From an uncultured Verrucomicrobiae bacterium (GTDB taxonomy: Bacteria > Verrucomicrobiota > Verrucomicrobiia > Palsa-1439), in NCBI GenBank assembly GCA_963812605.1, contig CAWEWF010000008.1:185107-249106 (forward strand): 64,000 nt of DNA, in the 5' to 3' direction. Below, piece by piece: positions 26,144 to 27,511 of this stretch. Position 1 is the stretch's first letter. Each line of letters starts with the position of its first letter. The position numbers and the translations under genes are program-made. Below the pieces are notes generated by a model. That model was not told the DNA's origin, ran no database searches, and saw nothing but the letters and a program-made list of their open reading frames with translations.

Positions 26144-26259
26144 GCCGGTAGTGCCTTAATTTCCGAATGGGAGGGACGCGCTCCGTCGCGTCCGCTGTCG
26201 TCAACGATCCCGGACGGCTACGACGGAGCGTGGCCCTTGTATCTAGAATTTTTGGTACT

Positions 26260-26480
26260 CTCTGGCTTGGTTTCCCACCGGTGTGGGAGCGACAGGATGG
26301 CCCTTGGGGGCATGCCCCCCAAGGGCGCGCGGAAGTGATCGTCGTGGCCCTCGGTTCGGTTCAGACCTGTCCGTTTGGAGCTGGATCCATCCGCGTTGCC
26401 TGTCGGTACGCTCGAACAGTTGCCAGAGCGGCGGTCGCGCCCATCCGCGCCACCACCAGCTCGCATTGCAAGGAGGAGTC
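26260..26480 (+). ncRNA. Predicted bridge RNA of IS110 #1 (boundaries approximate)
   Basis: Non-coding left end holds, in order, CGTGGCCCT (26343-51), TGGAG (26376-80), ACAGTTGC (26416-23) and TGCAAG (26467-72), matching the target and donor halves. Confidence 0.8.
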
Positions 26481-26485
26481 TAACC

Positions 26486-27427
26486 ATGTTGCCATCGATC
26501 GTCTACGTCGGAATGGATGTCGCCAAACTCACCCTGGATCTGCACGCCGCCAGCGGATCCCGCGCGCAGTTCCGTCAGTTTCCCAACCACCCTCAGGGCC
26601 ACCGCGCCTTGGTGCGTTGGCTGCAAGCTCTGGGATCCGTGCACGTCATCGGCGAAGCCACAGGCGGCTATGAACGCGCCGTCGTGGCCGCCCTGCACGC
26701 GGCCGGTGTAGTGGTTTCGGTAGTCAACGCGCGTCACGTGCGCGACTTCGCCCGCGCCACCGGTCGGCTGGCCAAGACTGACCAACTGGATGCCGCCGTG
26801 CTGGCGGCTTACGGCGCCGCCGTACGCCCGGCCGGCACCGCCGCGTTGAGCGCCGCCCAGAGTCAACTGGCGGAGTTGGTCACCCGTCGCCAACAAGTCC
26901 TGGCGCTGCGCGTGGCCGAGCACAACCGCTTGGAGCATCTCACCCACCCCAACGCCCGCCGGCAGATCCAGCGCCACCTCAGCCAACTGGATCGACACCT
27001 GGAACAGCTCGCCGCGTGGATCGCCGCCTTGGTCCAAGCCGAGCCCGCGCTGGCGCAGAAAGTCGCCCGACTCTGTTCGGTGGTCGGCGTGGGACGCCTG
27101 ACGGCCGTCGTGCTGTTGGCGCTGCTGCCGGAATTGGGCACGCTGAATCGGCGCCAGGCCGCGGCGCTGGCGGGTGTGGCTCCCTTCAATCGCGACAGTG
27201 GTCCGCATCGGGGACGCCGACAAATCGGCGGAGGACGGCCCGCCGCCCGGCGGGCCTTGTACATGTCGGCTCTGGTGGCGGCCTTTCGCCACCCGCAATT
27301 GCAGCCCTTCTATCAACGCTTGGTGGCCAAGGGCAAGGCCCCCAAAGTCGCCCTGGTCGCCGTCATGCGCAAACTCATCATCTTACTCAATCGCCTGCTC
27401 CAAGAACCTACTTTCCAACCCTTATGA
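26486..27427 (+). CDS. IS110 recombinase/transposase
   Basis: [21 protein letters not shown] (DEDD), [31 protein letters not shown]. Confidence 0.96.
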
Positions 27428-27511
27428 AAAGACAGTTGCTCCAGATTAGGGCACCACCAGTAAGCCGGGAAATGGGTTTGCAACAAGTCGGCCTTGAGAT
27501 AATGTTACCGT

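Follow-up and report, generated by a model that had tools for sequence, protein, structure and literature searches.

A probable IS621-like bridge RNA encoded in the left end of an IS110-group insertion sequence from a Verrucomicrobiae genome

Can the insertion site of a transposable element be read from the element's own non-coding end? The question is raised by an IS110-group insertion sequence that occupies positions 26238-27440 (1203 bp) of a 64,000-nucleotide stretch of contig CAWEWF010000008.1 from an uncultured Verrucomicrobiae bacterium; this stretch, at its full length, is referred to as the window. The initial annotation of the window proposed that the element carries a complete bridge RNA code directed at a repeated palindrome. 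We consider it highly probable that the segment is an intact, recently active, IS621-like member of the IS110 group with a bridge RNA-guided cycle. The evidence consists of the anatomy of the element, the target shared by its copies, the complementarity between guides and DNA, the covariation of guides with flanks and of paired bases within helices, and the conservation of catalytic residues. By every defining feature tested at the level of sequence, the element is an IS110-group member with an IS621-type bridge RNA.

The host genome (4.17 Mb in 15 contigs, 58% G+C, approximately 90% complete) contains four full-length copies and one truncated copy, which are 99-100% identical. In the window, CT cores are located at 26236-26237 and 27439-27440, so that the originally assigned span of 26236-27440 is correct, and a single gene lies between non-coding ends of 248 nt (left) and 13 nt (right). 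All five copies are preceded by ...GGAGCGTGGCC-CT, with left flanks that end in ACGGAGCGTGGCC-CT, and the right flanks of the four copies that have a right end begin with CCA in three cases and CCG in one. The proposal that other copies would occupy the same target is borne out, with 5/5 left flanks and 4/4 right flanks conforming. Joining the left flank (26229-26237) to the right flank (27441-27443) reconstructs the target CGTGGCC-CT-CCA, and joining the right end (27432-27440) to the left end (26238-26241) reconstructs the donor ACAGTTG-CT-TGTA. Both reconstructions had been put forward in the initial annotation; checked against the five genome copies, both are upheld. When the flanks are joined through one CT, they are colinear with an unoccupied paralogous repeat on contig 14 (92/106 identical) and the junction is ungapped; therefore, the element ends are exact and only the core is shared. 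Insertion is site-specific, with the same site used in 5/5 copies, and there is no target duplication beyond the CT core.

The seven-nucleotide left target corresponds to the 3' arm (26229-26235) of a hairpin, and the same 3' arm precedes all five copies. This hairpin belongs to a family of repeats that are arranged mostly as convergent pairs of an A-type and a B-type unit, 30-37 nt apart, in a REPIN-like manner. The stems of the two types read ...CGCGTCC (A) and ...CGTGGCC (B). Five of the 15 B-type sites are occupied (10 free, CGTGGCC-CT-CC; five filled, CGTGGCC-CT-TG), compared to none of the nine A-type sites (CGCGTCC-CT-CC). Genome-wide, the 11-mer CGTGGCC-CT-CC is found in 15 free copies. 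Some of the units share a longer unit of approximately 90 nt that includes CCAGATTAGG on its right side. The description of the target as a GGAG-type repetitive extragenic palindromic (REP) sequence is only partly earned. The units are palindromic, present in multiple copies and organized as doublets, yet they number only about 30, which is low for a REP family, and no association with a Y1 transposase, the REP-associated tyrosine transposase, was found: four PF01797 matches score above the cut-off, and a search for REP-like units that tolerated up to 5 mismatches detected none within 1.5 kb of the three such loci examined.

Four strings corresponding to the halves of target and donor are present in the left non-coding end in the order originally described, namely the left target guide (LTG), right target guide (RTG), left donor guide (LDG) and right donor guide (RDG) (Table 1). 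As a control for chance, the 248-nt left end was subjected to 300,000 mononucleotide shuffles. The 9-mer LTG recurred in 993 of these, the 8-mer LDG in 824 and both together in two, and no shuffle contained all four guides in order. These numbers bear on a simpler explanation, according to which the element is a genuine IS110 transposon whose protein alone chooses the site, the matches between left end and flank being either accidental or left over from the target. The guides are indeed short, target and left end are both GC-rich, the 9-mer by itself is not rare in the shuffles, and CGTGGCCCT occurs 70 times in the genome, close to the approximately 63 occurrences expected from our composition estimate. 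Against this stand the absence of the complete ordered set from all shuffles and the abrupt end of flank identity at 9 nt; because the identity does not extend further, the match does not stem from capture of the target. The unoccupied A-type units also differ from the B type at two left-target positions, including one where pairing with the LTG is impossible, and the guide positions change together with the flanks in relatives, as described below. We regard site choice by the protein alone as very unlikely.

The claimed match to the IS621 bridge RNA layout with a CT core holds, in that guide order and strandedness agree with the available portions of the published descriptions (PMC11208160, PMC11208158). 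It extends to details beyond the initial annotation, including the 8-nt LDG, the wobble and bulged U of the RDG, and both handshake positions. In the IS621 numbering used in those portions, the LTG occupies 50-58 after the linker C47-U49, and the 9-nt LTG here also follows CGU. The IS621 RTG (77-80) and target-loop handshake (81-82) correspond to 26377-80 and 26381-82, and the donor-loop handshake (166-167) to 26473-74. The LDG of IS621 (123-130, A123-C130) comprises 8 nt ending at the core C; here, the LDG stops at the same position because the base that follows is C, not U. In both systems, the LDG begins 73 nt after the start of the LTG (50 to 123 in IS621). The RDG of IS621 consists of A157-U158 and C162-G165, with a non-canonical G161:dT12 pair and U159-U160 flipped out. 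The RDG here has a single looped-out U, and its G:T wobble, contained in the string first reported as TGCAAG (26467-26472), falls at donor position 12. Because the IS621 RDG shows the same G:T at this position, the wobble is a family trait and not a defect. The donor sequence as a whole nearly equals that implied by the IS621 pairings. U26376, the additional base of the RTG, pairs with A12 in three copies and forms a wobble with G12 in the fourth. According to the handshake rule, as given in the available text on IS621 (PMC11208158), position 81 pairs with donor position 7 and position 166 with target position 7, neither of which is cognate. Judged by position, C26381 should be able to pair with donor G7 and not with target C7, and G26473 with target C7 and not with donor G7. 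The handshake bases are invariant among near relatives.

Table 1. Coordinates of the element, its flanking repeat units and the predicted RNA features, given as positions in the window
Feature	Position	Strand	Basis or remark
First unit of REP-like doublet (A type, inverted): GGAGGG plus hairpin with 7-bp stem	26170-26193	+	Sequence, family census
Second REP-like unit (B type), hairpin GGCTACG-ACGGAG-CGTGGCC	26216-26235	+	7-bp stem, folded
Core CT, left copy	26236-26237	+	CT at both junctions in all copies; single CT in the empty paralogous site
Left non-coding end, predicted to encode the bridge RNA	26238-26485	+	Begins with right-donor half TGTATCT; boundaries by copy comparison
-10 hexamer TAGAAT, putative junction promoter	26244-26249	+	Junction scan
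5' hairpin 1	26273-26288	+	Folds; a different hairpin at the same place in near relatives
5' hairpin 2, 11 bp	26300-26326	+	Folds; compensatory changes between window and L012/L032
Outer stem of target-binding loop, 5' strand	26327-26340	+	Helices 1-2: 12 pairs, 11 changed on both sides; 93.8% and 98.6% of cells paired
Linker before LTG (CGU)	26340-26342		C26340, G26341, U26342; placed as C47-U49 of IS621
LTG CGTGGCCCT (RNA CGUGGCCCU)	26343-26351	+	Same sense as left target plus core; 9/9 identical to flank 26229-26237
Stem-loop of target-binding loop	26352-26373	+	Helices 3-4, weaker: 94.6% and 68.1% paired, many gaps
RTG UGGAG	26376-26380	+	Reverse complement of CT-CCA, 5/5; GGAG at 26377-80 plus U26376
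Target-loop handshake guide CU	26381-26382	+	Assigned by position
Outer stem of target-binding loop, 3' strand	26384-26397	+	Constrained fold, covariation
Outer stem of donor-binding loop, 5' strand GCUC	26410-26413	+	Helix 5: 4/4 pairs changed on both sides, 97.5% paired
LDG ACAGTTGC (RNA ACAGUUGC)	26416-26423	+	8/8 identical to right end 27432-27439
Stem-loop of donor-binding loop, 37 nt	26426-26462	+	Helix 6: 5/6 pairs changed on both sides; inner length varies among relatives
RDG AUUGCAAG	26465-26472	+	Pairs with CT-TGTAT; 7 donor bases including one G:T; one looped-out U
Donor-loop handshake guide GA	26473-26474	+	Assigned by position
Outer stem of donor-binding loop, 3' strand GAGU	26476-26479	+	Invariant in near relatives; overlaps AGGAGG (26471-26476)
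Recombinase gene	26486-27427	+	313 aa; ribosome-binding site AGGAGG at 26471-26476 upstream
-35 hexamer ATGAAA, putative junction promoter	27424-27429	+	Overlaps stop codon
Right non-coding end	27428-27440	+	13 nt: left donor ACAGTTG (27432-38) plus core CT (27439-40)
Right target CCA	27441-27443	+	Remainder of the REP unit's CTCC foot

The encoded protein contains both domains of an IS110-group recombinase, with an N-terminal DEDD RuvC-like domain (PF01548, E = 1.8e-24, 86.8 bits, cut-off 29) and a C-terminal Tnp domain (PF02371, E = 4.4e-15, 56.3 bits, cut-off 21.3). A phmmer comparison with the PDB aligns residues 5-300 with the solved structure of IS621 (E = 3.8e-40), to which the protein is distantly related; a second solved relative, the ISCro4 transposase (PDB 9t56), yields nearly the same score (E = 2.9e-39). 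Residues D11, E57, D99, D102, and S237 align with D11, E60, D102, D105, and S241 of IS621 (chain 8wt6_A, in which the PDB numbering is shifted by 2 relative to the named catalytic residues). The latter five are the catalytic residues named in the structure paper (PMC11208158). The protein cluster has six members, and the sole name given to any of them is 'transposase'. The same protein family also includes the IS1111 branch, which likewise combines DEDD recombinases with guide RNAs, and an element of that branch would encode a seekRNA downstream of the gene, leaving the left-end matches as a secondary feature. The arrangement of the ends argues otherwise, since a right end of 13 nt and a left end of 248 nt follow the IS110-group pattern and are the opposite of IS1111; long sub-terminal inverted repeats also appear to be absent, although no formal search for them was made. 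The sequence downstream of the stop codon is too short to accommodate an RNA, and the structured RNA modeled below as R1 lies in the left end. Membership in the IS1111 branch appears scarcely credible.

Relatives provide stronger evidence than the shuffles. A scan of one genome per species recovered 80 loci with 36-74% protein identity, the nearest of which come from Verrucomicrobiae metagenome-assembled genomes. The Verrucomicrobiae IS110 loci with 60-74% identity (L012-L036) display the same architecture, with matching 5' hairpins and a nearly identical donor loop, ribosome-binding site and element ends. Their LTGs differ from that of the window element at 2-4 of seven programmable positions, their RTGs also differ, and the flanks differ likewise. 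Loci L012 and L013 carry LTG TCCAGCCCT and RTG TTTGTAG and are flanked by TCCAGCC-CT-ACAAA. In the L018 family (14 copies compared), LTG AGTCGCCCT and RTG GTTGGTAG accompany the flank AGCCGCC-CT-ACCAAC, the sole difference being a U:G wobble, and in L032 and L034 LTG TCCCGCCCT stands beside TCGCGCC-CT with one mismatch. In more distant relatives, the donor guide changes in step with the right end, and the donor guides ACAGCTGC, ACGGTTGC, ACAGTCGC, ACAGTTAC, and ACAACTGC each match their own right end. The term 'natural reprogrammed orthologue', applied to the element at the outset, is fair in that relatives at 60-74% identity keep the donor loop and have differing target guides that match their own flanks. 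We note that L012 and L013, which reside in the same genome, have identical guides and differ in the inner sequence of the donor stem-loop (25 vs 31 nt, at approximately 1455-1480).

The correspondence between guides and flanks was quantified by locating element ends with the conserved donor motif alone, independently of the target guides, and scoring each target loop against the flanks of every element, with a maximum of 16. The set omits the match on the minus strand of the window, elements lacking a recognizable left-end start or a reachable right flank, and duplicate loops. Across 30 non-identical loops, which include kin with shared flank families and thus represent fewer than 30 independent events, the mean score is 13.1 of 16 for an element's own flanks and 10.6 for those of other elements; none of 20,000 permutations reaches the observed value.

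Covariation is also seen within the RNA. The covariance model R1 was built from seven sequences and encompasses only the two loops, with the 5' hairpins outside the model. The search covered the window together with 53 of the 80 loci, after exclusion of 27 further copies from genomes already represented. R1 matches the window (26327-26481, 151.1 bits) and 40 of the 53 loci, in each case immediately upstream of the gene and in the same orientation as the gene; several of the 13 loci without a match have lost the upstream region to a contig end. In the R1 alignment, which was fitted to the model structure and is hence biased toward it, both partners are changed in 25 of 28 pairs and 94.2% of cells are paired, compared to 34-52% when the 3' partner is slid by 1-3 columns. 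The weakest modeled part is the inner stem-loop of the first loop, with 68% paired. Six near relatives, folded singly and without constraints, adopt the same architecture. A further weak match to R1 on the minus strand of the window (34332-34406, 13 bits, E = 0.23) is probably noise.

These features can be arranged into a cycle modeled on IS621, from which the transcription and promoter, RNA ends, binding and chemistry proposed here are taken by analogy. The element would excise as a circle, and the circle junction would unite the -35 hexamer ATGAAA of the right end with the -10 hexamer TAGAAT of the left end to drive a leader of approximately 230 nt. A script applied to the joined right and left ends identifies ATGAAA-17-TAGAAT, a 9/12 promoter match that exists at the junction only. 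A sigma-70 scan of the integrated sequence returns no sites at the tool threshold, and the best integrated site matches at 8/12 positions. Junction-only sites of 9-10/12 are found in four of six relatives checked. The promoter of IS621 is rebuilt across the core at the circle junction, as stated in the available portions of two reports (PMC11208160, PMC11208158), and the candidate promoter of this element, a consensus match, is in line with them. The leader is predicted to fold into two 5' hairpins followed by two stem-loops, each with an internal loop. In the first loop, LTG CGUGGCCCU and RTG (U)GGAG would recognize CGTGGCC-CT-CC(A/G); in the second, LDG ACAGUUGC and RDG AUUGCAAG would pair likewise with the circle junction ACAGTTG-CT-TGTAT. 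Strand exchange immediately 3' of the CT core would then fall to the DEDD/Ser recombinase (313 aa), acting as a tetramer, with handshake bases C26381 and G26473 each favoring the non-cognate strand. Insertion would take place in intergenic DNA, at the 3' foot of REP-like hairpins of a single type, with only CT shared and no further duplication. The bridge RNA fold and recombinase translation may be coupled, because the ribosome-binding site and the 3' strand of the outer donor stem have sequence in common.

Several results weigh against this picture, in addition to the kinship among loops and the alignment bias mentioned above. When no constraints are applied, the minimum-energy structure has six bases of the LTG paired to the RTG region, and keeping the guides unpaired raises the energy by 7.1 kcal/mol, from -101.3 to -94.2 kcal/mol. 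Taken as a whole, the left end is only slightly more stable than its shuffles (z = -1.77). LTG and RTG are bound to pair to some extent, since they correspond to opposite strands of a single core. In the constrained fold, two stem-loops form, both containing an internal loop with the guides on the expected sides. The initial proposal that the guides lie in two internal loops is thus supported by the constrained fold and by covariation of the framing helices, part of the LTG being paired in the unconstrained fold. The fit to flanks is poor in loci L014 and L015 (5/9 each), L044 and L050 (both ranking last), and L048. An E-value scan of 25500-28500 against Rfam 15 identifies no matching family. 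The promoter hexamers are mediocre, and two of the six relatives have no 9/12 junction site. Further objections concern the state of the copies. A full open frame is retained in three of five copies; the gene is broken in the other two, one being frameshifted and the other truncated after window position 26963 and also affected by indels. Between copies (L002, L004, L005), single-base indels are seen both in the G run of the 5' hairpin (26305) and at the foot of the donor stem-loop (26458-26459), and may represent either assembly errors or real defects. The sequencing runs listed for the element number 13, all of them of DNA type and none of RNA, and at least half of the words are present in three of the 13. 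Finally, the contigs of four metagenome runs contain no circle junction or excised site, and contigs break at the element ends.

As a separate observation, the extra G at 26305 is also present in two metagenome contigs, as a homopolymer assembly error or a real variant.

One alternative is a decaying family, in which the code is still readable and the elements are immobile through a dead RNA or protein or an unexpressed leader. It would account for the broken or truncated gene in two of five copies, the indels inside RNA helices, the lack of a promoter-like site in the integrated state, and the lack of a joint or empty allele in the four metagenome runs. It fits less well with three full-frame copies whose identity of 99-100% over 1.2 kb suggests recent spread, or with a protein in which all catalytic residues are intact. 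Weak expression from integrated loci is also reported for the IS621 bridge RNA in the available part of PMC13626964. In addition, in a single soil metagenome contig (depth 4.3), the left end is preceded by a different flank, ...CGCAGCC-CT, and both of its differences from the target are potential wobble pairs with the LTG, although this is a mere hint. Decay is unlikely in our judgment, and we retain the interpretation of a recently active element guided by a bridge RNA.

Compared with IS621, the element has the same two-domain DEDD and Ser recombinase with five catalytic residues, long left and short right ends, CT core, guide order LTG-RTG-LDG-RDG, two internal loops and strand rule, together with a REP-like target and a predicted promoter split across the circle junction. 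The left end measures 248 nt, compared to 191 nt in IS621, whose bridge RNA is 177 nt long; two 5' hairpins replace the single 5' stem-loop of IS621; and the stem-loops of the target and donor loops span 22 and 37 nt, compared to 12 nt (60-71) and 22 nt (133-154). The target guides are different, the host is a soil Verrucomicrobiae-like genome rather than E. coli, and the present element is known from sequence alone.

A further point of comparison is ISPpu10 of Pseudomonas putida, which, according to the available part of a preprint (bioRxiv 10.64898/2026.03.19.712850), inserts only into one intergenic repeat with a GC-rich stem-loop 5' of the target. In the present case, the 7-bp GC-rich hairpin includes guide-paired bases instead of lying 5' of them. 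Among relatives, at least five of the seven target bases fall in the 3' arm of a predicted hairpin in 17 of 31 distinct left flanks, compared to 34% of control windows (p = 0.016). These hairpins are a weak echo of the ISPpu10 target stem-loop. A target hairpin was considered as a general feature of the clade and rejected, given the weak enrichment (17/31 vs 34%).

The finding is correct and well supported, and it is not surprising, because bridge RNAs are predicted in 85.7% of IS110-group elements (available text of PMC11208160). The element appears to be an ordinary but very cleanly readable IS110-family member, whose RNA would spell both its genomic target and its own joined ends, as for IS621. 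Knowledge of the mechanism is unchanged. What is gained is a fully annotated natural orthologue from a phylum far from those of the characterized systems, including guides, handshakes, ends, a candidate junction promoter and a natural target family. The relatives, with their constant donor loop and varied target loop, constitute a small natural reprogramming series. The element might serve as a further candidate in screens of bridge recombinase orthologues, and it offers a clean test case for annotation pipelines, as Rfam 15 misses it.

A second, different IS110-group element is located on the minus strand of the window (61796-62773, element approximately 61786-63031). Its left end contains guide AGCGCGGC, which follows the hairpin flank ...GAAGCGCGG-CT, and TGTAG for a right flank that starts with ACA. 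Of its donor strings, ACGGTATC matches the element's own right end and AUGCACAAG corresponds to the left-end start. A further copy at 87% identity is present on contig 4. The two systems differ in both target and donor guides, and each would insert at the 3' foot of its own family of GC-rich REP-like hairpins. It is conceivable, though we are inclined to doubt it, that the genome harbors two distinct IS621-type systems that would form an orthogonal bridge recombinase pair if both are active, with the target hairpin acting as a shared structural gate in addition to base pairing, as proposed for ISPpu10, and the extra 5' hairpin as a clade-specific module. Directly to the right of the first element, the plus strand contains an open reading frame of 76 aa (window 27512-27742).

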